From assembly GCA_014435945.1 (NCBI GenBank), contig GCA_014435945.1_4088.1: a DNA stretch of 64,000 bases. One strand, written 5' to 3'. Positions 4,205 through 59,602 of the stretch are shown piece after piece. Position 1 is the stretch's first letter, and every line of letters starts with the position of its first letter. Below the pieces are notes generated by a model, which was given only the letters and a program-made list of their open reading frames with translations, was not told the origin of the DNA and made no database searches. Made by a program: the position numbers and the translations under genes. This DNA is from a phage.

Positions 4205-4458
4205 TCAATTTAAGTAAAGATGAATATACCGAGCGTATGACAAAAATCTCACCTAAACGTAATGCAATCTATTACAGCCAAGAAATTCCACACAGTAAGA
4301 AGATGATTATGTATCGTGAGTTAAAGATGGGTATGTTCTTAGGAACAAACTATCAAGAACCAGAAGTAAATCGCTTAATAAATGAATTACTCATGGAAAT
4401 CAGAGGTAAGCTGTACTTTCATCAAATGACCCAGCCACTGAGGTGTACTAAGAAATGA
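4201..4458 (+). CDS. small protein, tandem paralog family 1
   Basis: motif LGTNYQEPE. Confidence 0.65.
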   Translation: MINLSKDEYTERMTKISPKRNAIYYSQEIPHSKKMIMYRELKMGMFLGTNYQEPEVNRLINELLMEIRGKLYFHQMTQPLRCTKK

Positions 4459-4670
4459 TCAACATCACATTGCAAGAAAGATTCATCCGAATCAACTATG
4501 CAATTACCAAATTAGATGCTACTATAGACAACCAAAGTTTACCGTTCAAAACAAGAATGATATTAGAGTGCGAAGCCAAGTTAGGTGTACTGTTAGGGAC
4601 GCAACACCAACAACGATATGTGGAAATCTGGATTGATCTTTTAACCCAAAATGCACATGAGAGAATGTAA
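4455..4670 (+). CDS. small protein, tandem paralog family 1
   Basis: motif LGTQHQQRY. Confidence 0.65.
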   Translation: MINITLQERFIRINYAITKLDATIDNQSLPFKTRMILECEAKLGVLLGTQHQQRYVEIWIDLLTQNAHERM

Positions 4671-4901
4671 ATGCAAAAGGAAATGATATACTTAACACAT
4701 GATGAATTTCAAGAGAAGATGTTAAAAGCCAATAACATTACTCTTAAGTTCGTTCCAAATCAATCAATATATGAAATGTCTGCGAATGTATTGTTTCAGA
4801 AGCTACCATACGTTCTTGGAACTGATAAACAAGAATTTATGGTTCAAAATATGATTGAGCATCTTGCAATGAGTATTATGGAAAAAGTAAATGCAAAATG
4901 A
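4671..4901 (+). CDS. small protein, tandem paralog family 1
   Basis: motif LGTDKQEFM preceded by VLFQKLPY. Confidence 0.65.
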   Translation: MQKEMIYLTHDEFQEKMLKANNITLKFVPNQSIYEMSANVLFQKLPYVLGTDKQEFMVQNMIEHLAMSIMEKVNAK

Positions 4902-5133
4902 AATGAAATACTTAACATATAATGAATACGTCGAGAGATTAGTTAGTGCCAAGAGATATGCCAATCAACTTCCTAATGATCCAAACCAAACCCCAGAGGA
5001 AAAGAATGCGGAAGCTCTATTCCAAGCACTACCATACCTTCTTGGAACTGATAGGCAGGAGTATCACGTTGAACGTATAATTAAATCTCTTAAAATCACT
5101 ATTAAGGAAAAAGTAAATGCAAAAGCAAAATGA
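4891..5133 (+). CDS. small protein, tandem paralog family 1
   Basis: motif LGTDRQEYH preceded by ALFQALPY. Confidence 0.65.
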   Translation: MQNEMKYLTYNEYVERLVSAKRYANQLPNDPNQTPEEKNAEALFQALPYLLGTDRQEYHVERIIKSLKITIKEKVNAKAK

Positions 5134-5380
5134 AATGAAATACTTAACAGACGATGAGTTAAAAGAACGATTAATTAAATCCAGAAAACTTACAAATCAA
5201 CTTCCAATCGACACAAACAAGTCACATGCCGAAAGGAGTGCAGAAGTTTTATACATTCAACTCCTGTACTTTCTTGGAACTGACAGACAAGAGTATTACA
5301 TTGAAAGTATGCTTCGATATCTTAAATTCTCTATAAAGGAAAAGGTACATGCTCAAGAATTTAAAAATCCTAACAGTTAA
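5117..5380 (+). CDS. small protein, tandem paralog family 1
   Basis: motif LGTDRQEYY. Confidence 0.65.
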   Translation: MQKQNEMKYLTDDELKERLIKSRKLTNQLPIDTNKSHAERSAEVLYIQLLYFLGTDRQEYYIESMLRYLKFSIKEKVHAQEFKNPNS

Positions 5381-5591
5381 TGAATATCATAAGATTGTAA
5401 TGAAAACTAATAGTGAAATTTCTAAAAAATCAAACCCAAAGTACATACTGGAACACACATTCGAAGAACGTCAATTAGCTCTAGTTGAAGCAAAACTTCT
5501 TGCACTCCTAGGAACAAACTATCAGGAAGAATACATCAGAAAACTAATATACCTTTTAACTAAACACATCAGGAAAAGAAAAAAAGCATGA
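5349..5591 (+). CDS. small protein, tandem paralog family 1
   Basis: motif LGTNYQEEY. Confidence 0.65.
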   Translation: MLKNLKILTVNEYHKIVMKTNSEISKKSNPKYILEHTFEERQLALVEAKLLALLGTNYQEEYIRKLIYLLTKHIRKRKKA

Positions 5592-5818
5592 AACACTTGA
5601 CAGATGATGAACATGGGCTTATAGTAATGGATGTAATCAACATCGAATACAAAAAGTTGATACGCTACCGTTGTTATGAAGATAAGCAACTCGTTCTAGC
5701 AGAACAGAAGTTGTTTCGACTCTTAAACACAAACTTCCAAGCACAATACGAAGAATCGTATTTGTACCTACTGTCGAGGAAAGCAAAAAGAGATTATGAA
5801 AATTTTAAACCACAGTGA
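5588..5818 (+). CDS. small protein, tandem paralog family 1
   Basis: motif LNTNFQAQY. Confidence 0.6.
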   Translation: MKHLTDDEHGLIVMDVINIEYKKLIRYRCYEDKQLVLAEQKLFRLLNTNFQAQYEESYLYLLSRKAKRDYENFKPQ

Positions 5819-6011
5819 ACAAACAGAATTGTTAATCTTTAATACAAGTAAATTCTTAAACATAACATTGTCTGATATAGATGAGGATGAAAAAGAGTTA
5901 CTTAGAGCAGATTTAAGAGTTCTTTTATATGTTGGAACTAACTTCCAAGAGCAATTCGTTGAGGACTACATCGATGAACTTAAAGAATCTGTACTGAGAA
6001 CATGCAAATGA
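5796..6011 (+). CDS. small protein, tandem paralog family 1
   Basis: motif VGTNFQEQF. Confidence 0.65.
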   Translation: MKILNHSEQTELLIFNTSKFLNITLSDIDEDEKELLRADLRVLLYVGTNFQEQFVEDYIDELKESVLRTCK

Positions 6012-6235
6012 AAATCCTTTCACCAAGTGAATACCACGAACTATTAAGTAGTTTAATTCTAAAATTGTATATAGCAAAGACCACAGATTTACCTGATGAA
6101 GAAAAAAATATTCTAATGAGTGAAATCTATGTTAATTCTACCCTAGGGACTAACTATCAAGAATGTAATATTAATGATTACATCAATGAACTAAAAAGGT
6201 TTATCCAATGCAAATGCGAATCATTACCGAAGTAG
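6002..6235 (+). CDS. small protein, tandem paralog family 1
   Basis: motif LGTNYQECN. Confidence 0.65.
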   Translation: MQMKILSPSEYHELLSSLILKLYIAKTTDLPDEEKNILMSEIYVNSTLGTNYQECNINDYINELKRFIQCKCESLPK

Positions 6236-6450
6236 AATACCTAACAATCATAAATGGACTGTTTTCGAAGTTATTTGCCATTAACACATCAAAACTTCCA
6301 GATACTGATAAAATTATTAAGTTAAATGAAATCTACGTTCAAGCTACTCTAGGAACAAACTATCAAGAAGCCAATGTGTATAATTACATTAATACACTCA
6401 AAAGGGTAATACAATTAAAATGCACAGACAGCACACACACAAACCCCTAG
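6208..6450 (+). CDS. small protein, tandem paralog family 1
   Basis: motif LGTNYQEAN; close paralog of previous gene. Confidence 0.65.
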   Translation: MQMRIITEVEYLTIINGLFSKLFAINTSKLPDTDKIIKLNEIYVQATLGTNYQEANVYNYINTLKRVIQLKCTDSTHTNP

Positions 6451-6650
6451 GAACAGCAGAATACATTGAACTAATGGCTGCAAACTTCTCATCCTTTAAG
6501 AAACTGATGCAAGAATCAAATAATGATTTAGAATATCATATCAAAAGTTCAGATTTAAGATTACTACTCACTCTAGGAACAGACAGTCAGTACAAATTCG
6601 TACAGGAGCATATTAGAGCACTTTTAAATGGCATCAGGGATAAACTATGA
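6420..6650 (+). CDS. small protein, tandem paralog family 1
   Basis: motif LGTDSQYKF; start overlaps previous gene by about 30 nt. Confidence 0.55.
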   Translation: MHRQHTHKPLGTAEYIELMAANFSSFKKLMQESNNDLEYHIKSSDLRLLLTLGTDSQYKFVQEHIRALLNGIRDKL

Positions 6651-6862
6651 AGGAAATATCAAATCAAGAGTACTTGGCACTGTTCAGAAAAAATAGTCAA
6701 GAATTTCTGAATATTGATACAAGGACTGATATAAGTGAACTTCAGAAAAATCTTTTGCGTTCAGAGATGATAGTACTGACACTCTTAGGAACACAGCATC
6801 AAGAGAGAACTGTTAATTCACACATAGGTATTCTTATACAGATTGTACAGGAAAAGATATGA
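6647..6862 (+). CDS. small protein, tandem paralog family 1
   Basis: motif LGTQHQERT. Confidence 0.65.
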   Translation: MKEISNQEYLALFRKNSQEFLNIDTRTDISELQKNLLRSEMIVLTLLGTQHQERTVNSHIGILIQIVQEKI

Positions 6863-7080
6863 GAATCATAACACAACAAGATATTCTTAAGTTCACAAGG
6901 GTTCATGCATCTGAATTTGATGCTATATTATCAAAAAGTTACAATGACCCTTATACAGAAGATGTACTCTACAATGAATTATGGGTGTATATACTTTTAG
7001 GTACAGATCATCAAGAGCAAGCCGTACAGAAGTATTTGACAGCTTTACGTGATGCTACAGCTAATGGAGTACATGTTTAA
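6859..7080 (+). CDS. small protein, tandem paralog family 1
   Basis: motif LGTDHQEQA. Confidence 0.65.
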   Translation: MRIITQQDILKFTRVHASEFDAILSKSYNDPYTEDVLYNELWVYILLGTDHQEQAVQKYLTALRDATANGVHV

Positions 7081-9102: not shown

Positions 9103-9457
9103 AAAAGTAATATTTCTTTTGAATACAAGAAGCTCTTTATATAAGGAATTCAAAGATAATGATGGTTCTTTTAAACCATTATGTATAGAATTCAATGATT
9201 TAATTACAGATGCATTGTTTGAATTTTCAGAGAAATATCAAGATACCGTGTTTGGTGTTAAGAATGTTATTAGTCCAAGTTCAAGGAAGATAACGTTATC
9301 TCATTTTACATTTGACAATAAAGATTTATTCAGTTATAATCCTAGTACATCTTTATATTTTATTCCTAAAGGAGAAAAGAATAGTCCTATTCATTACGGA
9401 TGGATTATATCTTATACAATAAATGGAACGGAGTATCCTATCAAATGGCACGATTAG
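9068..9457 (+). CDS. hypothetical protein (129 aa)
   Basis: ORF in tight series; overlaps upstream gene by about 35 nt. Confidence 0.55.
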   Translation: MNMNPEIVQDLKKVIFLLNTRSSLYKEFKDNDGSFKPLCIEFNDLITDALFEFSEKYQDTVFGVKNVISPSSRKITLSHFTFDNKDLFSYNPSTSLYFIPKGEKNSPIHYGWIISYTINGTEYPIKWHD

Positions 9458-23907: not shown

Positions 23908-24441
23908 ATGTTAGATAAAATAAAGAACGAGGGAACTCTATACAATCATCTTAAGTTGGATACGTTCGAGGCAGCAATCAGTACTGCACAAGATATAATT
24001 GATATTATCAAGTACATTAAAGAAAATAAGTTAAAATGTGTGAAAACGCCAGAACGTACAATGTACAAAGATGACGACCTTCACGTATCAGTTGTTAAGC
24101 CAAAAGATAAGGATGGTAATAGAGATTTCTATAATAACAGTGGACAGTATGAATGTGAATATGATCCCGAATTTAGAGGTGGATTCATGTGCTTCAGTAA
24201 AACAGATACTTCACATGTTGAGATACGTACATTAAAAGGTCTAGGTAGATTTGAGTTCATGGATATAGAACTAAATGAAGAAAACTACTTCCAACAATCA
24301 TTACTTAATACTGAATACAATTTAGGTGTACTATTCATGTACAAGTACTTATATGAGCACTTAAATGAAGACTTCTATCTGGACTTAGAAGATTACCATT
24401 TAGTATGGAAAGAAATGGTAGAACTTCGTGAGAACTCTTGA
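23908..24441 (+). CDS. hypothetical protein, paralog family 2
   Basis: motif NEENYFQQSLLNTEY; start at ATG with GAGG RBS (ORF-track start 23851). Confidence 0.6.
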   Translation: MLDKIKNEGTLYNHLKLDTFEAAISTAQDIIDIIKYIKENKLKCVKTPERTMYKDDDLHVSVVKPKDKDGNRDFYNNSGQYECEYDPEFRGGFMCFSKTDTSHVEIRTLKGLGRFEFMDIELNEENYFQQSLLNTEYNLGVLFMYKYLYEHLNEDFYLDLEDYHLVWKEMVELRENS

Positions 24442-24467
24442 CACCCTCCAAATCTTTGTGATATAAT
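24438..24467 (+). promoter_or_regulatory. sigma70-like promoter
   Basis: TTGACA 24438-24443, 18-nt spacer, TG-extended TATAAT 24462-24467. Confidence 0.55.
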
Positions 24468-37929: not shown

Positions 37930-38235
37930 ATGGAAGACAACGGAATGAAATTTGATATGTTTGAAGGTGTACCAGAGTTCGATTTCAATAAACTTGAAAA
38001 TGGTGAAGAATCAGAACTAGTAAGTGTTACACTAAAATCAGATACCAAAAAGAAATATTCCCCATCAGTTCGTTCACGTTCTCAAGAAGAATATGAAACC
38101 TTCATTGATAGTATTCATTACGAAACGTTCCATCATGCAGATGGTACTCCGTATGAAGTTCGTGTTACAGTACTGAAGCCTGAAGTAAACCCAATGGAAA
38201 ATCTACGTCCTGTTTACTGCTGGGCAAGCCACTAA
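37930..38235 (+). CDS. hypothetical protein (101 aa)
   Basis: ORF with AAAGGAA RBS. Confidence 0.6.
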   Translation: MEDNGMKFDMFEGVPEFDFNKLENGEESELVSVTLKSDTKKKYSPSVRSRSQEEYETFIDSIHYETFHHADGTPYEVRVTVLKPEVNPMENLRPVYCWASH

Positions 38236-38241
38236 TAAACC

Positions 38242-38276
38242 AAAGGACGGGATATAATATCTCGTCCTTTTTTTGT
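38242..38276 (+). terminator. rho-independent terminator
   Basis: long hairpin AAAGGACGGGAT...ATCTCGTCCTTT followed by a T7 run. Confidence 0.65.
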
Positions 38277-38286
38277 CTGGAGATAT

Positions 38287-39144
38287 ATGAAACTTTATCT
38301 AATCGTTGACTACAGTAAGGGTTATTATGACTACGCAGAAGAATCTGAAGGGTATTGCTCGTCTACTAATGTCAATGTACGCACCAGTAATACACATGAG
38401 CATGAATCTATTACAAACCTAAAAGATTTCATCGCATATCGAGCATTTGAAAAGAATTTCTGTCGTAGTAGATATTCGAAGTTTGAGTACCCGTTGATTG
38501 ATGTTCCTGATGAATTGATGTTCCAGTTAATGCTCACTGGAGTACAAGATTATGATTACATCGCGTACAATCACATTACTAAGAAAATTTATATCGGTAC
38601 GTCAACACATGACATTTCTATGTATGCATCATGCCCGGATGATCGAATGAAGGATAGAAATTCACGAAATTCATACAGTAGTGGTTCAGTTGGTTTAAAT
38701 GATGCATTAAATAAAAATTTATTCTTTGAGTACGAGTTTGATAATCATCGAAGGAAAAAAGACCGAGAAGATTATTGTACTGAAATTGATAGTACCAATG
38801 GATATGAAGAAGTGAAAGAAGCGTTAATGCCATATATCCTTGACAAGTACTACAAAGATTTTCAGTACTGTAGTAATTTTCTAATCCGAAATTCTATCAT
38901 AATCGGTCGTCAAAGTACTGCATTCTCTAAGTACTACAATGATTCCCCTGTTGCTGAAAATGAAAACTGTAATGTTCTCTCAATCCCACGTGAAGATATG
39001 GTATTCATGTTCACATCTTTCATTGAAGATGATGAGTTGTATGTAAAAAACAAGCACAGGTTCATGCCAAGTAAGATTGAGGTTATGAGAAGCTTAAGTG
39101 CAGATATCTTAACGAATTTCACTGAAAAAACAGAATACAACTGA
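38287..39144 (+). CDS. hypothetical protein (285 aa) with family-2 motif
   Basis: motif PDELMFQLMLTGVQD. Confidence 0.6.
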   Translation: MKLYLIVDYSKGYYDYAEESEGYCSSTNVNVRTSNTHEHESITNLKDFIAYRAFEKNFCRSRYSKFEYPLIDVPDELMFQLMLTGVQDYDYIAYNHITKKIYIGTSTHDISMYASCPDDRMKDRNSRNSYSSGSVGLNDALNKNLFFEYEFDNHRRKKDREDYCTEIDSTNGYEEVKEALMPYILDKYYKDFQYCSNFLIRNSIIIGRQSTAFSKYYNDSPVAENENCNVLSIPREDMVFMFTSFIEDDELYVKNKHRFMPSKIEVMRSLSADILTNFTEKTEYN

Positions 39145-39170
39145 GACATACCATAAGTTTATGATATAAT
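39142..39170 (+). promoter_or_regulatory. sigma70-like promoter (TGAGACATA type)
   Basis: TGAGAC 39142-39147, 17-nt spacer, TG-extended TATAAT 39165-39170; same architecture as 52730-52758. Confidence 0.4.
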
Positions 39171-39174
39171 GTAA

Positions 39175-39205
39175 GGTGACAGCAGAATATGTTGTCACCT
39201 TTTTT
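39175..39205 (+). terminator. rho-independent terminator or attenuator hairpin
   Basis: GGTGACAGC-loop-GTTGTCACC stem then TTTTTT; lies just downstream of the preceding -10 box. Confidence 0.6.
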
Positions 39206-39735
39206 AATCCTGAAAGGTTCCATATGGAAATGATTGAAGCCTAATCCACTCGAAAAGTAGAGGGTAGATGAGTAGTCCTTTCAGTACGAACAGCAAATGA
39301 AACCCGTTAGATGATGGCATAGTTTGAACCACTCACGGCAATGCGGCTGTATAAAGAACTCCAATAGGATAAAGAGAGTTCCTCGATAGACATATAAGGA
39401 TCGCACCTTACCAATTATCTAAGGGAGATTTCATGAGAAATTTGCGGTCGTAATTTATACAATATAGTTGCGTCCAAAATTCGTGAAATCAAATACAAGT
39501 ACTGGTCATATGGTATTTGTATTATGTGTCGGGATGTTTAAGACCGACGACCGTTGCTACAAGAACCGCGATAGAGAGAAACAGAGCAACCCGCTTTCGC
39601 CTCGTAAGAGAATTCGTGATATGAACTATGTGAAGGCCACCAGCGTCAAACTTTTTTTGTTCTTTCCCCTGCGGGGGGATGAAATATGCTCAAGCAAACC
39701 CCGTCAATATTAATTAAAACAAATCATAGTACTTT
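39205..39735 (+). other. non-coding region, candidate structured RNA or decayed gene remnant
   Basis: about 530 bp with stops in all frames, visibly higher GC than flanks, bounded by terminator and promoter; the only listed ORF (39468..39713) has atypical composition. Confidence 0.3.
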
Positions 39736-39737
39736 CG

Positions 39738-39766
39738 TTGAATTAGACATGCGAAGCGTGTATAAT
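39738..39766 (+). promoter_or_regulatory. sigma70-like promoter
   Basis: TTGAAT 39738-39743, 17-nt spacer, TATAAT 39761-39766. Confidence 0.5.
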
Positions 39767-39779
39767 TCGACTGGTGTTG

Positions 39780-40370
39780 ATGAAGTCAACGCCATGTACA
39801 GTCATTGATGTTTCCATAGGAATAATGATGTCATTTATTAAAAAATCTAAAAGCGTCACTTATAAAACACTAGAATTTGTTGATTCAGACAATCAGAACC
39901 AAGACCAAGAGAATTTTACTGGTTTTGTTGTGATTAAAGAAAAGGGATGTATTTCGTACATCAAAGAGTTGCAGTGCGGTTTTGAATTAACTTCCATTAA
40001 GTTATTCCCAACCAAGAAGCCTACAATTCTTAAAGCTCGTTATGGGAACTACTACGAAGAGCGTTATAGTAATAATCTAATCAGTGCGAAAGCACATATC
40101 GTCAATGGAGAACTAGAAGGAGAATATAGAAAATTCAACCCACAAGGAAAATGTGTTTGGGTTAAATACTTCAATTCAGGAAATGATGTAACATCAGAAA
40201 TTATTGAGTTTTTAGGTTTAACATGTACCCTTGAAACTCTTCATGATTACAAATTTAATACTGAAGAAGAGTTTAATCTGATGATGCGTTATGGATCACA
40301 TTTTAAATTTTTATATGAATACAACATTGACAGTAGTACTTTTGATGACATAGTACTTAACTGTCTATAA
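39780..40370 (+). CDS. hypothetical protein
   Basis: ORF-track ORF 39774 begins with GTG; first ATG is 39780, alternative ATG 39825. Confidence 0.55.
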   Translation: MKSTPCTVIDVSIGIMMSFIKKSKSVTYKTLEFVDSDNQNQDQENFTGFVVIKEKGCISYIKELQCGFELTSIKLFPTKKPTILKARYGNYYEERYSNNLISAKAHIVNGELEGEYRKFNPQGKCVWVKYFNSGNDVTSEIIEFLGLTCTLETLHDYKFNTEEEFNLMMRYGSHFKFLYEYNIDSSTFDDIVLNCL

Positions 40371-40386
40371 TCAAAGGAAATTATGT

Positions 40387-40911
40387 ATGTCGAAGAAGGA
40401 TGCTTCGAAGAAAAAACAATCAGTACATTTCAGTACTGGAAAAGATAACTGGACTACTCCAAAGGATTTCTTTGAAGATTTGGATGAACTCTGGGAATTT
40501 ACACTAGATGCAGCGTGTGTCAAAGAAACTGCATTGTGTGATAAGTTCTTTACACCAGAAGACAATTCACTTGAACAGGACTGGGGAAACAATATCGTGT
40601 GGCTCAACCCACCGTACAGTGATTTGAAAACGTGGTTATCTAAGGCAGTTGATGCATATAACAAAGGTGCTACAGTACTGATTCTCGTACCATCAAGAAC
40701 TGATACTATAGCCTTTCAGGATTATGCTGCGAAAGTTTGTGATTGTATTTGTTTTATAAAAGGTCGCTTAAAGTTCGGTATCCCTGAAGAACCAGATAAA
40801 AAGACGGACAGTGCTCCATTCCCTAGTTGTTTAATAGTACTGGATAAGTATTTGACTCCAGCTAAAATCAACTATCTTAAATCTATTGGTCAGGTGATGA
40901 AGAACATATGA
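40387..40911 (+). CDS. DNA N6-adenine methyltransferase (phage Dam family)
   Basis: AAGGA RBS; motif region WTTPKDFFEDL...FTLDAA...VWLNPPYSDL...ILVPSRTDT matches the phage N6A-methylase family with its NPPY catalytic motif. Confidence 0.8.
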   Translation: MSKKDASKKKQSVHFSTGKDNWTTPKDFFEDLDELWEFTLDAACVKETALCDKFFTPEDNSLEQDWGNNIVWLNPPYSDLKTWLSKAVDAYNKGATVLILVPSRTDTIAFQDYAAKVCDCICFIKGRLKFGIPEEPDKKTDSAPFPSCLIVLDKYLTPAKINYLKSIGQVMKNI

Positions 40912-41441
40912 AAGAAACATGCGTAGTGACATTCGGAAGAATTAACCCTGTACATCGAGGTCATGGTTTAGTGTTTGAAAAAGCTCAAGCACTACAAGAA
41001 CAGTACAATGCTGATTTGAAAATATTCCTTAGTACCAGTACTGATGCCGTCAAAAACCCATTACCTCCTGAACTGAAAATGTACTATACAGAAGGATTTT
41101 ACCCATCTGTACAAGAAAATATCTATACAGAAGATAATCTGTTTGATATAATGAGAGAACTGGATGGAAAGTACTTAGATGTTCTTTTCATATGTGGTTC
41201 AGACAGACTTGAACCATTCCAAAAAACGCTTGACACGTACAATGGGAAGTTATATAATTTTTGTTCAATCAAGGCAGTTCAAGCTGGAATTGATCGAAAT
41301 GTAAGTCGCTACAGTTCCACACAGATGCGTGAGTTTGCCAAGAATGAAGATTTTAATAGCTTCAGTACTTTTCTACCTGGTAATGATGATGCACTGAAAA
41401 CTAAACTATTTGAAGATGTAATAAAATACATGAGGAAATAA
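40908..41441 (+). CDS. nucleotidyltransferase (HxGH cytidylyltransferase superfamily; NMN adenylyltransferase-like?)
   Basis: N-terminal TFGRINPVHRGH is the (T/H)xGH signature; ATGA overlap with methyltransferase gene. Confidence 0.6.
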   Translation: MKETCVVTFGRINPVHRGHGLVFEKAQALQEQYNADLKIFLSTSTDAVKNPLPPELKMYYTEGFYPSVQENIYTEDNLFDIMRELDGKYLDVLFICGSDRLEPFQKTLDTYNGKLYNFCSIKAVQAGIDRNVSRYSSTQMREFAKNEDFNSFSTFLPGNDDALKTKLFEDVIKYMRK

Positions 41442-41443
41442 CT

Positions 41444-41737
41444 ATGTCAGTACTGTTTAAAACTAACCCAGTACTTTGGGATCAGAATGAGGATTCGGGT
41501 TTCCGTTCAATCCATGTTGAATTCAAAGGTAATACGGTGGTTGCAATCATTGCAAACAAAACTTTAGGAAACTGGACTGCACAAGTTGTTCCTATGGGAT
41601 ATTCTTATACATCTGATGAAGTTGCGTTTCTGGCTGAATTATATAGTCAAACACCATTCATCATCAATGTTTTAGAGCGTAGTGATAAGTTAACACATGA
41701 CGAAGTAATTGACTTCCTGGCGAACTTACATGTCTGA
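41444..41737 (+). CDS. hypothetical protein (97 aa)
   Basis: ORF 2 nt after upstream stop. Confidence 0.55.
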   Translation: MSVLFKTNPVLWDQNEDSGFRSIHVEFKGNTVVAIIANKTLGNWTAQVVPMGYSYTSDEVAFLAELYSQTPFIINVLERSDKLTHDEVIDFLANLHV

Positions 41738-42017
41738 TGATTCGAATCTAACAGGTTATTTTTTACAAGAATCAATGATCAAATTCAGTGAACATTTTCC
41801 AGTACTAGATGGTGTGGAGATGTGGCATGTAAAACCACTCTTCCACACTTTCAGTAAAGAGCACAAAATGTTATTGACTGAGGCTTGTAAATCGAATAAA
41901 ATATGCCAAATCAAGATTGGTGTAAATGTCTACAAAGGATTAGTCATCTTTTTTGACAACAACAGCAACTACTTTTATATTGTTAAGGAGCATTACGTTG
42001 ACAAATACAAATACTAA
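41730..42017 (+). CDS. hypothetical protein
   Basis: ORF-track ORF 41709..42017 trimmed to ATG overlapping upstream stop; stop codon lies inside a hexamer repeat. Confidence 0.5.
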   Translation: MSDDSNLTGYFLQESMIKFSEHFPVLDGVEMWHVKPLFHTFSKEHKMLLTEACKSNKICQIKIGVNVYKGLVIFFDNNSNYFYIVKEHYVDKYKY

Positions 42018-42615
42018 TACATACTTTCGTTATCTTCGCCTAGGGCTTTCCCTACGCCCAATCCGTGGTAAGTGTGATTCACTTGCTGATTTGGATTATG
42101 CATATGCATTACATTGTGATGGTGTTCAATATGTATTAGGTGACTATGGCACATTCGAAGAATCCAATGACAGTTCAGAAATTATTGCTGGTGTTGCTAA
42201 CCTTAACAACATTGCCAATAGTTCTCGTCATGAAATCGTTCTTGAAATTCAGAACTTCATTGAGAAAAATACTGGCAAGCGTACATGGTCATATGTCGGT
42301 ACTGATGCACAAATGTCAATCGCATTTGGTAACGAAGATGGTTATGTAGCACAACTTATTATGGATTTCGAATCAGAAGAGAAGTTCCTAGAATACAAGG
42401 AAAAAATCATCCAATCCTTGTTGCAAATGGGTATTCCTGAAGATCGTATGCCTGAAATTCAAAGCATTGATGAGTTTGTTCTTATCCCATCTGATGAAAA
42501 ATATGATGCGATGTTTACAGCACTGAACATTCCTGGTGTAGTTGTTGAGTACTTCGATGATGGTGATGCTGACATTTACCTAGATCTCGACGACGATGAT
42601 GACGATGATGAATAA
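41953..42615 (+). CDS. hypothetical acidic protein with poly-Asp C-terminal tail; start unresolved
   Basis: ORF opens with TTG, no in-frame ATG for about 100 codons; ends DLDDDDDDDE; terminator follows. Confidence 0.5.
   Translation: MTTTATTFILLRSITLTNTNTNTYFRYLRLGLSLRPIRGKCDSLADLDYAYALHCDGVQYVLGDYGTFEESNDSSEIIAGVANLNNIANSSRHEIVLEIQNFIEKNTGKRTWSYVGTDAQMSIAFGNEDGYVAQLIMDFESEEKFLEYKEKIIQSLLQMGIPEDRMPEIQSIDEFVLIPSDEKYDAMFTALNIPGVVVEYFDDGDADIYLDLDDDDDDDE
42001..42024 (+). repeat. tandem hexanucleotide repeat at gene junction
   Basis: ACAAAT ACAAAT ACTAAT ACATAC; contains the stop codon of 41730..42017. Confidence 0.5.
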
Positions 42616-42621
42616 TACATA

Positions 42622-42649
42622 TAGCCCGACATAAGTTCGGGCTATTTTT
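42622..42649 (+). terminator. rho-independent terminator
   Basis: TAGCCCGA-loop-TCGGGCTA then TTTTTG. Confidence 0.7.
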
Positions 42650-42661
42650 GTAAGGGGAAAT

Positions 42662-42931
42662 ATGAATTACAAACATATACAATTCACTTATATGGAATTA
42701 TTTAAATTACACCATAATCACAGAAGTACTAACACAATTAATAAAAATGCGTTTACTCATAAATTATGGTCAAATTACCTAGAAGAATTACGTGAGTATT
42801 TTATTGATACTGAAATTTTCATTAATGGAAAAAAACGAAAGATACTTAGAGTCGATAGTTTTGGTGGTAGATTAGTACTTTCATATAAATTTGATAACGA
42901 CTTATTCTCTGTTGATTTGGTGAATATATGA
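42662..42931 (+). CDS. hypothetical protein, tandem paralog family 3 (QFTYK motif)
   Basis: N-terminus MNYKHIQFTYMELFKL. Confidence 0.6.
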   Translation: MNYKHIQFTYMELFKLHHNHRSTNTINKNAFTHKLWSNYLEELREYFIDTEIFINGKKRKILRVDSFGGRLVLSYKFDNDLFSVDLVNI

Positions 42932-43188
42932 ATTATAAAGATTTCCAATTAACATTCAAGTGCATTCGTGACCTAGCAAATAAAAATAATAGTATATTTT
43001 TAGAAGATACATGTATTGAAATGATTAATATTGTGCGTGAGAGGATTAAAGAAAAATTCAGTACTGTAATTATCAACAACGATCATGCAGAATTTTCAGA
43101 TATAATCATTAAGCTCGATGGTAAAGTAGAGGTACAGTTCTACACTGATTTTGGATTTACGAGTGTTCCTCTGGAGATATTCCCTTGA
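42928..43188 (+). CDS. hypothetical protein, tandem paralog family 3
   Basis: N-terminus MNYKDFQLTFKCIRDL. Confidence 0.6.
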   Translation: MNYKDFQLTFKCIRDLANKNNSIFLEDTCIEMINIVRERIKEKFSTVIINNDHAEFSDIIIKLDGKVEVQFYTDFGFTSVPLEIFP

Positions 43189-43496
43189 AATTAAATTTGA
43201 ATGATGTTCAATTCACGTATAAAAATATATATGGTTTGTATGACATGTATCTTTTTAGTGGGAAGATTGGTGAACATGTCGAATCAAAAGAATCACCATT
43301 TATTAATAATTACTATGATTACTTAGATTCTATTGCTGAATATATAAAAAAGAATTACAGTACTTACACTGATGGAGATGATATATTCGAATATTCAGGT
43401 GTAAAATCTTATCAAGGTATTATCCATGTAGAATTTCTTGAAAAAACTGATAGGGAATTTATGGAGATTAAAGTTTTGAAGTTAACGGACCTATAA
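43185..43496 (+). CDS. hypothetical protein, tandem paralog family 3
   Basis: N-terminus MKLNLNDVQFTYKNIYGLY. Confidence 0.6.
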   Translation: MKLNLNDVQFTYKNIYGLYDMYLFSGKIGEHVESKESPFINNYYDYLDSIAEYIKKNYSTYTDGDDIFEYSGVKSYQGIIHVEFLEKTDREFMEIKVLKLTDL

Positions 43497-43506
43497 GAGT
43501 TGACAT

Positions 43507-43818
43507 ATGAATATTAATGATATACAATTCACATACAAATTTTTGTATATCCAATACGCTACGGTTGATGCTGGAGAATATCTCTACGGTGAAATCTATC
43601 GTTCGGTATGGATAAAGTTTTTGGATGAATTACATGAATATTACCATGATTTGTGTATAGTTCGTGATAATAAAATATACAAATTCCGCGATATTGTTAG
43701 TCATAGCGGTAAGCTACGATTGGAATTAAGTACTGATAGTGATGTTGATTGGATTGGTGTAAATTTACTGGAGTTGGAGAATGAAAAACAACTTAAAGGA
43801 AATACAAGTATTTTATAA
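43507..43818 (+). CDS. hypothetical protein, tandem paralog family 3
   Basis: N-terminus MNINDIQFTYKFLYIQY. Confidence 0.6.
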   Translation: MNINDIQFTYKFLYIQYATVDAGEYLYGEIYRSVWIKFLDELHEYYHDLCIVRDNKIYKFRDIVSHSGKLRLELSTDSDVDWIGVNLLELENEKQLKGNTSIL

Positions 43819-44065
43819 ATTCTTATACTTGTCATATGTAAAAGATGAGTACTATGAAAGTGTGTATTATTTTTTATGGCAACATTACCGTACTATAGTA
43901 AGAGATTTATATATAGGAAAATCTATCATATCCAATGGTGAAAAATGTATATGTACGGATGTCGTGAGTTATAATGGTTCTTTAACACTGTGTTTCAGAT
44001 GCGTTAATAATAGTGGGTCATTTTCATTAAACATATATCAGTTAGAAGGAATAAATTTTGAATAA
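43781..44065 (+). CDS. hypothetical protein, tandem paralog family 3
   Basis: N-terminus MKNNLKEIQVFYKFLYLSY. Confidence 0.55.
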   Translation: MKNNLKEIQVFYKFLYLSYVKDEYYESVYYFLWQHYRTIVRDLYIGKSIISNGEKCICTDVVSYNGSLTLCFRCVNNSGSFSLNIYQLEGINFE

Positions 44066-47943: not shown

Positions 47944-48207
47944 ATGAATATCCAAGATAGATTGCAATTATTGCACACACTTGAAGAAGCTGCTTTTGAA
48001 CTTGTTAATAAAATTGCACAAGAACTCCCAAAAGGAACCAAAGTTCGTGTTCGTGAAATGGATTATTTAACGGGAAAAATTGATGAAAAAGTTCTAACAG
48101 TGATCAAAGTAACATACTATGAATCAGAGTTATCAATTCAATGTAATTCAGATAATGGTTACGTTTCCTACTATGGTACAGATGTAGATATAGAGGTAAT
48201 AAAATGA
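47944..48207 (+). CDS. hypothetical small protein (loose family 4)
   Basis: ORF-track ORF 47899 trimmed to ATG after upstream stop with GGTGG RBS. Confidence 0.55.
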   Translation: MNIQDRLQLLHTLEEAAFELVNKIAQELPKGTKVRVREMDYLTGKIDEKVLTVIKVTYYESELSIQCNSDNGYVSYYGTDVDIEVIK

Positions 48208-49346
48208 CCCTTTTACAAATATATGAAGATTTAATGCACTTATGTAATACCCGTGAGGCTTTCTTTTATGTGGATCATAAAAGTCCTGCTGGTGGAACAT
48301 ATCGTGTATTCAGTTATCGTCTAGCATCATATACCGATTTCATGCAACCCAATGCATTAGAAACCCGTGGTTCTATGTGGGAAATTGATGAAGACGGTGA
48401 TATGATTCGTTGTGCTGCTCGTACTATGAAAAAGTTCTTCAATGCTTACGAAAATCCTGCTACAATGTTCCCTGCTGATACCTCATTCGATGACATTGCA
48501 GTAGTGATGCCTAAGTTGGATGGTTCAGTAATCAGTACTTACCGTGATAATGATGGTGTAATTCGTTGTAAATCACATACTGCATTGTATTCAGATCATG
48601 CGATTAACAGTACTCGTCTTCTCAATGAGAACCAAAATTTGTATCAATACATTGACGAAGCAGACCGTTTGGGCTATACTGTTAATCTGGAGTATACAAG
48701 TCCAGAGTACCGTATTGTATTACCATACCAGGTTGAACAATTATTTGTACTAAACGTTCGCCATCGCAAGAGTGGTGAACTATTATGTGGTTCTGCATTA
48801 CGTAATAAGTTCCCATGCCTTGCACAGTACAGTACTAACATGACAGGTAAAGATATTCATTACACTTTCCCTGCTCGTGCTACATTCAAAGAAAGTGTTG
48901 AAGAAGTTAAGAAAATGCTTGACATTGAAGGTTTTGTGTGCATCCTAAATAATGGTACAATGTGCAAAATCAAAACCGACTGGTATTGTTCTTTGCATTT
49001 AACGAAAGACAGTATTATAATCGATTCCCATTTATATGAAGCTGTATTAAATGGTTCGAGTGATGATTTAAAACAGTTGTTCAGTACTGACGAATATGCT
49101 ACCCAAAAGATATTAAGAATGGAACAACTAGTCTTTTCGTGCTATAATGCTTTACAAGATGAAGTTGAAAGCTTCGTCAAGGAACACAAGCACTTGGAGC
49201 GAAAGGAATTCGCTAAGAAGGTTCAGGAGTGTTTAACTAATGAACTGAATCGTCAGGGCTTGGCCTTTGCAATGTACAACAATAAGAAAGTCGATTACAA
49301 AGAGACTCTTATTAAGTACATGAAAATTGTACTAAAGGATTTTTAG
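48204..49346 (+). CDS. rnlA: RNA ligase 1 (T4 RnlA-like)
   Basis: N-terminal region ...CNTREAFFYVDHKSPAGGTYRVFSYRLASYTDFMQPNALETRGSMWEID closely parallels T4 RnlA; nucleotidyltransferase motif I KLDGS. Confidence 0.85.
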   Translation: MTLLQIYEDLMHLCNTREAFFYVDHKSPAGGTYRVFSYRLASYTDFMQPNALETRGSMWEIDEDGDMIRCAARTMKKFFNAYENPATMFPADTSFDDIAVVMPKLDGSVISTYRDNDGVIRCKSHTALYSDHAINSTRLLNENQNLYQYIDEADRLGYTVNLEYTSPEYRIVLPYQVEQLFVLNVRHRKSGELLCGSALRNKFPCLAQYSTNMTGKDIHYTFPARATFKESVEEVKKMLDIEGFVCILNNGTMCKIKTDWYCSLHLTKDSIIIDSHLYEAVLNGSSDDLKQLFSTDEYATQKILRMEQLVFSCYNALQDEVESFVKEHKHLERKEFAKKVQECLTNELNRQGLAFAMYNNKKVDYKETLIKYMKIVLKDF

Positions 49347-50168: not shown

Positions 50169-51101
50169 ATGCCAACTATCACACTAACAGTTGGATTGCC
50201 AGGGTGTGGTAAAACTACATGGGCAGTGCAAGAGATTAAAAAAGCCAAATCCAAGACTATCAACATCAACCGTGATGATATTCGTGAATCTATGGCTGGG
50301 TCACATGATGCTTACAAATTCAACGATGCTAATGAGCAGTACGTAACTAATTTACAGTTCAGTGCAGCAAATTCAGCCGCAGAGAATGGTTGGAACATCA
50401 TCATATCCGATACGAACCTTAAACAACATTTCCGTAATCTATGGAAAGTATGGGCTACAGATAATGGTTATGATTACAAAGAAAAGAATTTCTATGATGA
50501 TTTTGTACCTAATGAAGACCGTGGTGCAGATGTTCATGAATTCTTTAAGATTAAAGAGTTCGTAAAACTTTGTAAGAAATATAACCTCCAGCGTGAGCGT
50601 TCAGTACAAGATAATATCATTGACACTATGGCAGATACGTACTATTATAGTAAGGCATTACACATTGGTTACTATGGTAATTCACGCGAAGCTGCTATTA
50701 TCGTTGATATCGACGGTACTCTTGCTCATAAATGGGGACGTAACCCGTTCGATGAAAGTACTGTTCTCCAGGACACACCAGACGAAGAAGTTATTTTGTC
50801 TATTATCGCAGAAGCAGTTTTTCATAAACGCAAGATTATCGTCATGAGTGGGCGTACTGAAGGGTGTCGTGCTGATACCGAACAGTGGCTTAAGAATTGG
50901 GGTATTCCTTACGATGCATTGTTTATGCGAGACATTGATGATAAACGTCCTGATGATGTTGTCAAATTCGACCTGTACATGAAAAATGTGGTTGATCATT
51001 ACGATGTTAAAAAGGTATATGATGACCGCAATCAAGTTGTGTTCATGTGGCGTAAGTTACTTGGGTTGAAAGTTTTTCAAGTGGCTGAAGGAAATTTCTA
51101 A
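50169..51101 (+). CDS. pseT: polynucleotide 5'-kinase/3'-phosphatase (T4 PseT-like)
   Basis: P-loop GLPGCGKTT in N-terminal kinase domain; HAD phosphatase motif DIDGTLA; C-terminus VFQVAEGNF parallels T4 Pnk. Confidence 0.85.
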   Translation: MPTITLTVGLPGCGKTTWAVQEIKKAKSKTININRDDIRESMAGSHDAYKFNDANEQYVTNLQFSAANSAAENGWNIIISDTNLKQHFRNLWKVWATDNGYDYKEKNFYDDFVPNEDRGADVHEFFKIKEFVKLCKKYNLQRERSVQDNIIDTMADTYYYSKALHIGYYGNSREAAIIVDIDGTLAHKWGRNPFDESTVLQDTPDEEVILSIIAEAVFHKRKIIVMSGRTEGCRADTEQWLKNWGIPYDALFMRDIDDKRPDDVVKFDLYMKNVVDHYDVKKVYDDRNQVVFMWRKLLGLKVFQVAEGNF

Positions 51102-54243: not shown

Positions 54244-54494
54244 TGTTCAACACCGACTATTCACATTTGCGATATCTTATGTCTTTGGCTGATGATTTTA
54301 TTAATGATTTGAAGCCGAAGTATATTGGACAAGAAGTATCTTTGATAAACTCAAGGGGTTATGGGAAGTACATTATCGCTGATATGTATATTAGCGGTGG
54401 TGAATGGCGTTTCAAAGTTAATACGTATCTTAAAGATGGTTCTTTTGCAGGTACACAAGTTACAAAACACACTAACATTATATGGTTGAAATAA
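54243..54494 (+). CDS. hypothetical small protein (loose family 4)
   Basis: ORF-track ORF 54168 trimmed to TAATG overlap; LKPKYIGQEVSL pattern. Confidence 0.5.
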   Translation: MFNTDYSHLRYLMSLADDFINDLKPKYIGQEVSLINSRGYGKYIIADMYISGGEWRFKVNTYLKDGSFAGTQVTKHTNIIWLK

Positions 54495-54496
54495 TA

Positions 54497-55240
54497 ATGA
54501 AACATTTTTTGGAAATTACAGTACCGGATGATAAAGATTTATATATCGTTGGTGATTTACACGGCAATGGAAAACTGTGGGATGCTACCAAGAAAGAATT
54601 TGGTATCACCAATAATGACTATGTTTTTTGTGTAGGTGATGTTATTGACCGTGGTGACCAGAATTCCAAACTACTATTTGAATTCCTTTTCGGTGAAAAC
54701 CGTTTTATGATTGCTGGGAACCACGAGATCATGTGTGTTGATTCTGAAACTCACCGTGACTGGCATCACTGTTGGGTACAAAATGGTGGAGATAAGTTCA
54801 TTGATGAAGTTGGTGAGACAGGTATACAGTTCTTCCGTCAGTACTTAAAGGATCTCCCTATGATTATCCAAATCAATCACCGAGGATTGAAGATTGGTCT
54901 AGTTCATGCTGGTGTTCCATTGGAATATACCACATGGGAACGTTTCGTTAGTGGGACAAAATCACTTAGTGCTGATATAATTGAGAAGTGCTTGTGGGAC
55001 CGTGATACATTCGACTACTGCAAGAAAAATAACACATATTACGTCCCTAGACTTGATGGCATCCATTGCGTCTTTAGTGGTCATACCGCAGTATCCGACC
55101 CACTCATCTACGGTAATCGTATCTGGATTGATAGTCAGTTTTTAACTGGTGATTTGACTCTTGCAACTCCCCAAAGTGGCGGGATGAGATACTTACGTAA
55201 AGAAAAAGATGAGTATTCATTTAACCGCTTCAAAAGGTAA
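54497..55240 (+). CDS. Ser/Thr protein phosphatase (PPP-family metallophosphoesterase, lambda-PPase-like)
   Basis: GDLHG, GDVIDRG and GNHE metallophosphatase motifs in canonical order; start at ATG just after upstream TAA. Confidence 0.75.
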   Translation: MKHFLEITVPDDKDLYIVGDLHGNGKLWDATKKEFGITNNDYVFCVGDVIDRGDQNSKLLFEFLFGENRFMIAGNHEIMCVDSETHRDWHHCWVQNGGDKFIDEVGETGIQFFRQYLKDLPMIIQINHRGLKIGLVHAGVPLEYTTWERFVSGTKSLSADIIEKCLWDRDTFDYCKKNNTYYVPRLDGIHCVFSGHTAVSDPLIYGNRIWIDSQFLTGDLTLATPQSGGMRYLRKEKDEYSFNRFKR

Positions 55241-57372: not shown

Positions 57373-58791
57373 ATGAGCATTTTAGCAATTCTTGAAAGCA
57401 TTAAAAATACTAGCAGTACTCTGGGTAAAAAAGCTATCCTTGAACAAAACAAAGATAACCAAACATTACAAAAAGTACTGAAATATACACTAGACCCTTC
57501 AATTGTAAGTGGGTATAAAAAGCTACCACAAGCTGATGATGTATATCAACATATGACATTAGACGAAGCTATTGATAAGCTAGAATGCATTTACAAACGT
57601 GGTGTGACCGGAAATGCTGGACGTGACTTCATTGCTTCAGTACTGGGTTCAGTATCAGAAGATGACCAAGAAGTTCTTCGTAAAATGCTCACGAAGAACC
57701 TTGATTGTGGTATCCAAGAAAAGAACTGCAATGATGTGTTCGGGAAAGGTTTCATCAAAGACGAACCATACATGCGTTGTTCGTTGATTGACAAAAAGAC
57801 TGCAAAGAACATTAACTTCAAAGATTATGGTTATGCTATATCAGAAGTGAAAATGGATGGTCAGTACTTGAACCACGTTGTCATTAATGGTTCATTAACT
57901 TCTACATCCCGTAATGGTAAACTATACGACTTCCTGGGTTGTCGTGATGGTGAGATGGCAGGTCTTGCTCACATCATCCAAAGTAAAGATGAACGTTTTA
58001 GTAGTGGTGTAGTCTTTATGGGTGAAGGTGTAGTACTGGACAATGATGGAGAAACCATTCTCCCACGCACTACTGGTAACGGTATTATCCAGAAAGCTGG
58101 TAAAGATAGCATCAGTCAGAATGAAGCAATGCGTACTGTATTCGTTCTATGGGATGTTGTTCCATATGATGCATTTTGTGAAGGTGTATGGGATGTAAAA
58201 CGTAAAGAACGCCGTGAGATCTTAGTAGATGCAATTAACGAACTCGGTAGTGATTTTGTTCGTATGGTTGGATTCCGTAAAGTTCTAAACATCAAAGAAG
58301 CATTTGAGTACAATAGTGAACTAATGAACGAAGGTGAAGAGGGTTCAGTACTGAAATGTGAAGATGGTATCTGGAAATCTCACACTTCTCCTAAGCAGTT
58401 GAAAATGAAACTTAAAATGCAATTGGACTTGCGTATTGTTGGTTTCAATGAAGGTGAAGGTAAGCGTAAAGGTAGCCTTGGTTCTTTACAACTGGAAAGT
58501 GCTTGTGGTACATTGAAAGTTAATGTAGGTACTGGAATTAAAGAGAAAGACGCAGAATGGACGTTTAAAACCATTTGGGAAAGAATGCAAGAACTCATTG
58601 GTCAAGTAGTGACAGTAGAGTGCAATGATATTGTATTCGATAAGCGTACTGGTGAGCCATCACTATTTTTACCAGTGTTTATTGAATTTAGATTTGACAA
58701 AAACACCTGTGACGACTATACTCGTATCTTAGAAATTCGTGATAGTGCTGTTGAGGTGTTCTCTAATAGTATTCTTGAATCACTCGGTTAA
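57373..58791 (+). CDS. ATP-dependent DNA ligase (T4 gp30-like)
   Basis: N-terminus MSILAILESIKNTSSTLGKKAILEQNKDNQ parallels T4 DNA ligase; adenylation motif KMDGQ; 472 aa. Confidence 0.85.
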   Translation: MSILAILESIKNTSSTLGKKAILEQNKDNQTLQKVLKYTLDPSIVSGYKKLPQADDVYQHMTLDEAIDKLECIYKRGVTGNAGRDFIASVLGSVSEDDQEVLRKMLTKNLDCGIQEKNCNDVFGKGFIKDEPYMRCSLIDKKTAKNINFKDYGYAISEVKMDGQYLNHVVINGSLTSTSRNGKLYDFLGCRDGEMAGLAHIIQSKDERFSSGVVFMGEGVVLDNDGETILPRTTGNGIIQKAGKDSISQNEAMRTVFVLWDVVPYDAFCEGVWDVKRKERREILVDAINELGSDFVRMVGFRKVLNIKEAFEYNSELMNEGEEGSVLKCEDGIWKSHTSPKQLKMKLKMQLDLRIVGFNEGEGKRKGSLGSLQLESACGTLKVNVGTGIKEKDAEWTFKTIWERMQELIGQVVTVECNDIVFDKRTGEPSLFLPVFIEFRFDKNTCDDYTRILEIRDSAVEVFSNSILESLG

Positions 58792-58810: not shown

Positions 58811-59602
58811 ATGAAATTTGTTGTAACGTCAGACGTACACGGTGGCACTGATTACCTCCATAGTGGTGATTACAGTGATACAGTACTGATTATTGCAGGG
58901 GACTTTGATGAAGCTAAACGCAGTCGTTATCGTACTGGTATCGAATCCCTGTGCAAGCAGTTCAAGAATGTAGTACTGGTTCCTGGTAATCATGAGTACT
59001 ACGGTTCAAACATTCACAAGACTAATAAAGTACTGTCCGATATGCAAGATGAGATTCCAAATTTCATCTTTTTGCAAAACAAATTTGTATGGCTGGATGG
59101 TGTACTGCTGGTTGGTAGTACACTGTGGACTGACTTTGATAAAGGCAATGCACTGGTTAAGTTTGATGCTCATCAAAAGATGAATGATTATAAACACATT
59201 CGTCATGGAACAACATCAGAACCGTGGAAACGTAAGCTCAAACCTGATGATGTTGAGTTCATGCATTATCAGGATAAACAATTTATCAAAAATTCAGTTG
59301 ACACAGTTCGTCTAATGAATGATAATGATTTCAAGGTTGTGGTGGTAACACATCATGCACCAAGTTATCAGAGTGTATCTCCGAGATACAAGAATGACTC
59401 ACTGAATGGATGTTATTGTTCTGATATGGACCAGTACATCGAAGATTTGGGTGCTGATGTTTGGATTCATGGTCACGTTCATAGTAGCTTTGACTACAAT
59501 ATTGGGAAAACTCGTATCATTTGTAACCCAAGAGGTTATGAATCTTACAGTGGTGCATGTGAGAACTTCGATTACGATCCTAAATTTGTATTTGAAATCT
59601 AA
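58811..59602 (+). CDS. calcineurin-like metallophosphoesterase
   Basis: motifs SDVHGG, GDFDE, GNHEYY, VTHHAP, GHVHSS; AGGAGG RBS. Confidence 0.75.
   Translation: MKFVVTSDVHGGTDYLHSGDYSDTVLIIAGDFDEAKRSRYRTGIESLCKQFKNVVLVPGNHEYYGSNIHKTNKVLSDMQDEIPNFIFLQNKFVWLDGVLLVGSTLWTDFDKGNALVKFDAHQKMNDYKHIRHGTTSEPWKRKLKPDDVEFMHYQDKQFIKNSVDTVRLMNDNDFKVVVVTHHAPSYQSVSPRYKNDSLNGCYCSDMDQYIEDLGADVWIHGHVHSSFDYNIGKTRIICNPRGYESYSGACENFDYDPKFVFEI

Follow-up and report, generated by a model that had tools for sequence, protein, structure and literature searches.

NAD pathways of phages are well documented (10.1101/2024.02.11.579819; PMC13464706; PMC7824862), about 1.1% of phages being reported to carry NARP2 (10.1101/2024.02.11.579819), and according to a prediction of Iyer et al., nucleoside diphosphate (NDP) sugars are made by some nucleotidyltransferases (NTases) of the HIGH superfamily in phages (PMC7824862). 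For another phage protein, the 'cytitidyltransferase' of T4-like cyanophages, no literature was found under this name or under DUF5824, and the cyanophage papers just repeat the annotation of the glycerol-3-phosphate cytidylyltransferase (GCT) type. In cyanophage S-SZBM1, the product of gene 140, a homologue of 362 amino acids (aa), was seen by mass spectrometry in purified virions with two peptides (PMC9146016), which suggests that the long forms of this family are possibly packaged proteins. Here, we describe a member of the same family in a stretch of phage DNA of 64,000 nucleotides (NCBI GenBank assembly GCA_014435945.1, contig GCA_014435945.1_4088.1; the whole stretch is called the window below), which by nucleotide identity to deposited phages is DNA of an Asteriusvirus (121Q/PBECO4-like) jumbo coliphage. 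The member, open reading frame (ORF) 2, directly follows a methylase gene, ORF1:

40387..40911, plus strand: ORF1, predicted orphan Dam-family DNA N6-adenine methyltransferase, 174 aa, NPPY at aa 74-77
40908..41441, plus strand: ORF2, predicted stand-alone nucleotidyltransferase domain of the HIGH superfamily, phage 'cytitidyltransferase' family, 177 aa
40908..40911, plus strand: ATGA stop/start overlap, in which the TGA of ORF1 and the ATG of ORF2 share four bases

A sequence-only reading of the window had joined the two genes by this overlap, correctly so, and had considered the pairing of a methyltransferase with a possible NAD-salvage enzyme notable, calling the link speculative. In our view, these are probably two unrelated enzymes, which became neighbours by descent and compaction in Asteriusvirus, ORF2 being a HIGH adenylyltransferase that would act on a phosphorylated acceptor.

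ORF2 is a member of the family known as 'cytitidyltransferase' in T4-like cyanophages. It matches PHROG 3041 (E=4.1e-54) and PHROG 395 (1.1e-24), both labelled 'cytidyltransferase', and in a fold search of BFVD its top structural matches (TM 0.8-0.95) all come from the same family. A word-indexed homologue search gave close relatives only, and the extent of the family was therefore taken from a full HMMER search, in which 3,445 representative clusters, out of 1.84 billion representatives searched, matched the profile at E<=1e-3; most of them are proteins of 400-1,200 aa with the domain close to the N-terminus. Using tblastn against phage records, the family was found in 566 of them, about 460 belonging to Synechococcus and Prochlorococcus myoviruses, among which it is near-universal, while the remaining records include the pelagiphage HTVC008M, Rak2-like phages as well as phages of Pseudomonas, Erwinia, Xanthomonas and Vibrio.

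The motifs of ORF2 (FGRINPVHRGH, KNPL, GSDR, YNGKLYNF, R130 and YSSTQMR) follow the signature of the family, GR-x-N-P-P-[T>>H]-x-G-H, KNPL, GSDR, YNG-x-x-YNF, G-x-R and S-[AS]-[TS]-x-x-R, and all residues invariant across 38 diverse members (H19, N50, R100, N112, S136 and R141) are present. The Rossmann-like fold, the N-terminal (H/T)xGH and the C-terminal SxTxxR that mark the HIGH or cytidylyltransferase-like superfamily can all be found in ORF2, which thus has the HIGH fold with its catalytic motifs intact. The HxGH signature on which the sequence-only reading relied is present as written at the N-terminus (MKETCVVTFGRINPVHRGH); the first position of this motif is T in 120 of the 143 family representatives and H in 17, so that ORF2 shows a minority form within its own family. 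The TxGH form is the one seen in PPAT (CoaD). Curated models hardly recognise the protein. Searches of Pfam and NCBIfam gave only sub-threshold matches to the N-terminus, among them the N-terminal part of FAD_syn, and the gathering threshold of PF01467 (CTP_transf_like) was missed with 16.9 bits vs 21, this model being matched at E<=1e-3 by 45 of 64 longer family members; phmmer with ORF2 against the PDB found no match.

The sequence-only reading had named as the outcome that would speak against it a second ORF belonging to an unrelated HxGH family such as GCT. This is not what was found; ORF2 falls into a family of its own. Enzymes of the GCT type align with this family over about 110 residues only, and inspection of the ORF2 sequence revealed no second motif resembling RTEGISTT, as would be expected of a GCT or CCT along with a compact domain of about 130 aa. 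The C-terminal Arg of SxTxxR together with alignments of about 150 residues rather favour the adenylyltransferase type. Such full-length alignments of the family profile to PDB entries were obtained only with bacterial PPAT (E ~3e-4, positions 3-149, with KNPM/KNPL and ISSxxR in common). ORF2 could be a PPAT-like enzyme or another cofactor or sugar-phosphate nucleotidyltransferase (for dephospho-CoA, FAD, CDP-glycerol or an NDP-sugar) encoded by an auxiliary metabolic gene, an idea to which the prevalence of TxGH in the family, the label PPAT on one GenBank record of an ORF2 homologue and the prediction of Iyer et al. lend themselves. However, hhalign against the single sequence of E. coli PPAT gave a probability of just 11% over 140 columns, ORF2 does not match the CoaD model of NCBIfam, an enzyme of the GCT type is opposed by the short alignment and the missing motif, and neither glycosyltransferase nor CoA genes were found in the neighbourhoods examined, the contexts being those of replication and repair. 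We thus regard this explanation as distinctly unlikely, and the same holds for any other small phospho-metabolite as the acceptor. AGN12290.1, named by Iyer et al. as a HIGH NTase for NDP-sugars, could not be confirmed as the family member of cyanophage P-SSM3, which is AGN12011.1.

A role in NAD metabolism deserves a closer look, as ORF2 might be an NMN or NaMN (nicotinamide or nicotinic acid mononucleotide) adenylyltransferase topping up NAD+ during infection, either against defences that deplete NAD or by recycling the NMN left by the NAD-dependent ligase of the host. The documented phage NAD pathways make such an enzyme conceivable, and the GRxNPxHxGH of ORF2, followed by xNPL, parallels the GRFQPFHxGH...NPF of archaeal NMNAT and NadM, an hhalign comparison with the M. 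jannaschii NMNAT (again a single sequence) reaching a probability of 90% over 51 N-terminal columns. The NCBIfam models of NadD/NMNAT respond weakly, but their scores are far below the curated cut-offs (TIGR00482, 18.6 bits vs 112.45; NF000840, 16.9 vs 150), and the matches of the family profile to NadR, NadM and archaeal NMNAT in the PDB are restricted to the N-terminal part, ending at about residue 65-70. In BFVD, the first annotated viral NMNAT appears at rank 50 with TM 0.50. The membership in an NAD family, which the sequence-only reading had considered possible, is not borne out by these data, and nor is an NAD-salvage pathway. Whole-genome searches made use of the complete assembled genome of TH47, a relative with 98% identity over a 3-kb query region around the gene pair; tblastn with human NAMPT, Felixounavirus Namat and Adps, archaeal NMNAT and E. 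coli NadD gave a best E of about 0.1, so that Nampt, Namat and Adps remained undetected in TH47, PnuC not having been searched for. This search can be considered sensitive, because the same NAMPT query matches 2,020 other phage records. ORF2 itself is a single-domain protein lacking a Nudix or ribosylnicotinamide kinase domain. Nicotinamide and ADP-ribose from cleavage by TIR or SIR2 proteins could not be rebuilt into NAD+, because E. coli is not known to have a Nampt and none was found in TH47. Furthermore, in the metagenomic phage L103 the gene of a canonical NadM-Nudix protein (IGRFQPFHVGH..., with the Pfam domains CTP_transf_like and NUDIX) lies 4.5 kb from a member of the ORF2 family, which speaks against redundancy between these enzymes:

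L103:1541-2536: canonical NadM-Nudix gene
L103:7001-7597: ORF2-family member

Finally, a family near-universal in cyanomyoviruses differs widely in its distribution from NARP2. Taken together, we hold NAD+ synthesis by ORF2 to be unlikely, and on a rough estimate NMN or NaMN is likewise an unlikely acceptor, with nothing but the N-terminal motifs in favour of NMN, the remainder of the probability falling to others. Judged from the profile comparisons, the ORF2 family is a separate one, roughly equidistant from NMNAT and PPAT.

What the partners of the family have in common may be more informative with regard to its function. Counts of partners were derived from 80 IMG/VR loci bearing the ORF2 family and those of additional domains from 64 long members. 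In 41 of the 80 loci a gene of DUF6267 (PF19782) lies upstream on the same strand, directly adjacent in 15, within 2 kb in 19 and fused to the NTase in three, the fusions being single proteins of 595-599 aa. DUF6267 also precedes the family gene in Vibrio phage EniLVp02 (L010) and in the contig L104, and in L103 (hhalign 90%) and L008 (72%) the start codon of the NTase is overlapped by a divergent protein resembling DUF6267; in both of these, a cassette is formed by a protein with HAD motifs (527 aa in L103, DLDLT...VTAR...WDDN), the DUF6267-like protein and the NTase. Pfam supports the HAD domain only weakly, the DxDxT...T...K...DD motifs being visible by eye, and jackhmmer did not join the upstream nuclease-like and HAD proteins across lineages. 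DUF6267 is abundant (at least 6,564 clusters) and possesses the invariant motifs KWDG, QGD, PNT, PEG[YF]V and VK-x-[VI]-[DN]-R, which we read as the pattern of motifs I, III, IV and V of covalent nucleotidyltransferases; a comparison with PDB sequences gave no match, so that the likeness of DUF6267 to ligases comes from the fold search only. Among the 64 long members, 14 contain DUF5824 and five a Zeta-toxin/AAA_33 P-loop kinase domain, which also matches the 'polynucleotide kinase' model of PHROG. In EniLVp02, UvsW.1 (PF11637, E=7.8e-19) is located N-terminal to the family domain in a protein annotated 'DNA helicase' (L010:3626-4513), whose gene stands between those of the replicative helicase and the primase, and elsewhere the family gene is positioned between gp41 and gp61, beside DNA polymerase B or near ribonucleotide reductase. 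A domain that seemed to be common to the cyanophage neighbours turned out to be an artefact, a single-linkage cluster arising from fusion proteins, without pairwise similarity in P-SSM3.

These partners (DUF6267, kinases resembling polynucleotide kinase (PNK), UvsW.1 and the replication modules) point to the metabolism of nucleotides or nucleic-acid ends and neither to the methylase nor to a Nampt-dependent rebuilding of NAD. We infer that ORF2 would bind ATP through HRGH and SSTxxR and would transfer AMP to the phosphate of its acceptor, releasing pyrophosphate and yielding A(5')pp-X. It is tempting to go one step further and to see the family as part of the nucleic-acid end-repair and ligation of phages instead of cofactor salvage, a proposal that we put forward tentatively and consider unlikely. 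On the one hand, the family could make and recycle A(5')pp(5')X as the adenylyl donor for the co-encoded or fused DUF6267, which would be the logic of LigA and NMNAT owned privately by the phage; on the other hand, it could adenylylate 5'-phosphate ends directly after these have been phosphorylated by the fused PNK-like kinase. A ligase-linked dinucleotide or a nucleic-acid 5'-phosphate as the acceptor is, in line with these two routes, a speculative choice of about the same low probability. The lone domain found in Rak2-like phages would, on this proposal, work for Rnl1, Pnkp and DNA ligase, whose genes are 7-17 kb downstream in the window. The window does contain a set of RNA-repair and ligation genes 7-18 kb downstream of the gene pair:

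48204-49346: RNA ligase of the T4 Rnl1 type
50169-51101: polynucleotide kinase-phosphatase (Pnkp) of the T4 type
54482-55240 and 58811-59602: two calcineurin-like phosphoesterases
57373-58791: ATP-dependent DNA ligase

Several points weigh against our interpretation of two unrelated neighbours and of an adenylyltransferase in the metabolism of nucleotides or nucleic-acid ends. DUF6267 was not found in the window, TH47, GAP32 or RCIP0023, and the evidence from partners is thus transferred to the window phage from distant relatives. Among themselves, the three fusions of DUF6267 with the NTase share 54-58% identity, and a single event may lie behind all of them. The N-terminal motifs of ORF2 are NadM-like, which makes NMN a possible acceptor, and the function of the cyanophage homologue has been called unclear (PMC9146016; PMC6918029). 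The adjacency to the methylase gene is kept down to 39% NTase identity (in Cronobacter phage GAP32) and might conceivably reflect a functional link specific to the clade.

As to the methylase, the assignment of ORF1 to the Dam family made by the sequence-only reading is confirmed. WLNPPYS at aa 72-78 represents the catalytic (D/N)PP(Y/F) motif, and the protein matches Pfam Dam (PF05869) with E=2.5e-32 and 112.3 bits (cut-off 28.1) over profile positions 7-153 of 169, PHROG 111 'DNA methyltransferase' with 1.1e-56 and the PADLOC model of orphan methyltransferases (oMTase) with 4.5e-36, while the equivalog cut-off of NCBIfam TIGR01712 (phage_N6A_met) is narrowly missed (92.5 bits vs 97.05). By all appearances of its sequence, ORF1 is a complete, ordinary orphan Dam-type methylase, which would use S-adenosylmethionine to methylate the N6 of adenine in phage DNA, the usual role of such enzymes being protection from restriction. 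By analogy with characterised PF05869 enzymes, its target is probably GATC-like; GATC is under-represented in the window (0.51x), a figure that does not settle the target of ORF1. Other short words deviate as well: GCGC is absent from the window where about 49 copies are expected, and its complete avoidance suggests selection by a restriction system, CTAG, CCGG and GGCC occur at 0.3-0.5x with GATC being likewise low, TGCA reaches 1.7x and GTAC 2.9x (561 vs 195 expected).

The gene pair is already deposited and annotated in GenBank. The 3-kb stretch around it is 99.6% identical to Escherichia phage EC.P1 and 98-99% to eight further deposited coliphages; with PBECO4, 121Q and their kin the identity is about 83%, the matching relatives all being Asteriusvirus jumbo myoviruses of about 350 kb, and several of their records label the pair 'DNA methyltransferase' and 'cytidyltransferase'. 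In TH47, each of the two genes is present as a single copy (tblastn). Some labels are misleading: in several deposited phage genomes the ORF2 homologue is called 'ribonucleotide reductase A', an error that has been propagated, or 'NrdB', and ORF1 is once referred to as 'type I restriction-modification system methyltransferase subunit' (mis-annotations of ORF1 or ORF2 homologues occur in MH791411, PP777464, KM507819, MK773491 and JN371769).

Dam-NTase adjacency recurs in Cronobacter phage GAP32, Klebsiella phage RCIP0023 and Salmonella phage 7t3, and one could imagine the pair as a module by which Rak2-like phages modify their DNA in two steps, placing for example a nucleotide-activated group at or beside the N6-adenine. 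That the adjacency is kept in Asteriusvirus, RCIP0023, 7t3 and GAP32 down to 39-41% protein identity, and that a stop/start overlap of 4 nt is also found in RCIP0023, would fit such a module. Against it, GAP32 has a 3-nt gap in place of the overlap, and the entire block of 7-9 consecutive genes around the pair is collinear with GAP32 and RCIP0023 (Rak2-like phages), which renders the adjacency inherited synteny without a specific signal. Outside the clade, a Dam HMM search detected no Dam-like ORF in any of the 80 IMG/VR loci, and no methylase was seen next to the family gene in ten other contexts (S-SM2, P-SSM3, Pseudomonas phage Deifobo, Vibrio phages EniLVp02 and 2.275.O, and the five metagenomic contigs L005, L008 and L102-L104). 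ORF1, moreover, is complete and ordinary as an orphan methylase. A modification module is hence very improbable, and the pairing held to be notable comes down to synteny of the clade.

The overlap between ORF1 and ORF2 is not special either, because ATGA is the default joining of this genome: of the 156 plus-strand junctions in the window, 29 are ATGA overlaps and 94 overlap somehow (simple gene call, about 96% coding density). At 1181-7080 and 42662-44065, small ORFs of about 65-100 aa are strung together by ATGA overlaps into long chains; an N-terminal '(D/N)(I/V)QFTYK' motif is common to those at 42662-44065 and hints at families of tandem paralogues. The gene pair would belong to a tightly packed early/middle operon and lies within a run of six genes bounded by two terminator-like hairpins:

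39173..39201, plus strand: terminator-like hairpin and T-run (12-bp stem, 5 GC pairs), end of the preceding unit
39774..40370, plus strand: gene of PHROG 16210, first in the putative transcription unit of ORF1 and ORF2 (annotated start in a relative at about 39828)
41230..41258, plus strand: perfect sigma-70 consensus TTGACA-N17-TATAAT within ORF2, where the conserved LDTYNGKLYN is encoded
41444-41737, 41709-42017 and 41953-42615, plus strand: three small genes downstream of ORF2 (PHROG 14956; synteny with GAP32 and RCIP0023)
42621..42645, plus strand: terminator-like hairpin and T-run (9-bp stem, 5 GC pairs), end of the ORF1/ORF2 unit
9312-9340 and 24438-24467, plus strand: the other two perfect sigma-70 sites of the window

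Homologues of the first gene of the run occupy the same position in GAP32 and RCIP0023. The idea that the small ORFs downstream of ORF2 encode the C-terminal extension by which long members of the family exceed it was rejected, as no similarity was found. The plus strand of the window holds three perfect TTGACA-N16-18-TATAAT sites vs 0.32 expected; both hexamers of the one inside ORF2 are kept in RCIP0023 and not in GAP32, and it may serve the genes downstream as an internal promoter or simply result from the conservation of the protein. Between the first hairpin and the next gene, about 540 nt (39205-39773) are without a convincing ORF; no tRNA was found in the whole window and no Rfam match in 38000-44000, leaving this gap without a detectable RNA gene.

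The pairing as such is therefore of little significance; it reflects default gene packing and provides no evidence that a new NAD pathway acts against defences. What merits attention is only the chemistry of the ORF2 family and its link to the ligase-like DUF6267, an abundant domain whose association with this family, fusions included, was previously unremarked. The family, carried by the majority of T4-like cyanophages, by pelagiphages and by several lineages of jumbo phages, has sequence clusters in the thousands, and knowing its acceptor would give a role to one of the most frequent unassigned enzymes in the replication modules of marine phages.

Comparing the locus with described systems, ORF1 resembles the phage N6-adenine methyltransferases of PF05869/TIGR01712 (orphan Dam of the T1 and Stx-phage type) in its length of about 170 aa, its NPPY and the lack of a cognate endonuclease gene alongside, and differs from the TIGR01712 equivalogs by a score just below the curated cut-off. 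For ORF2, the enzymes NadM, NatV and archaeal-type NMNAT (Francisella NadM 2qjt, M. jannaschii 1f9a, KVP40 NatV) show about 15% identity and a likeness in profile searches that is confined to the N-terminal third; unlike NadM and NatV, ORF2 has neither a Nudix domain nor a Nampt partner, and its family co-exists with a true NadM-Nudix in L103. NARP2 and NARP3 include a HIGH-type NMNAT domain and hence the superfamily of ORF2, but NARP2 needs Nampt, NARP3 needs PnuC and the NadR-like NMNAT-kinase, and NARP1 needs Adps and Namat, and in contrast to NARP1 and NARP2, the relative TH47 has no detectable Nampt, Namat or Adps (PnuC, for NARP3, was not searched for). Bacterial PPAT (CoaD) is of the same size as ORF2, aligns weakly with the profile over the full length and has TxGH, KNP[ML] and ISSxxR in common with the family, whereas the E-value of only ~3e-4, the low hhalign probability and the absence of a CoA-pathway context set ORF2 apart. 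Of the same family as ORF2 is the 'cytitidyltransferase' of cyanophages (T4-like gene cluster 190; for example S-PM2, P-SSM2, S-SM2 and S-SZBM1_140), with 30-37% identity, TM 0.85-0.91 over the whole of ORF2 in BFVD and all family-invariant residues in common. The cyanophage proteins are longer (360-1,070 aa) owing to N- and C-terminal extensions, whereas ORF2 is the bare domain; their genes belong to the gp41-gp61 replication module and often follow DUF6267, but do not follow a methylase; and ORF2 carries HxGH, whereas most members of the family carry TxGH.

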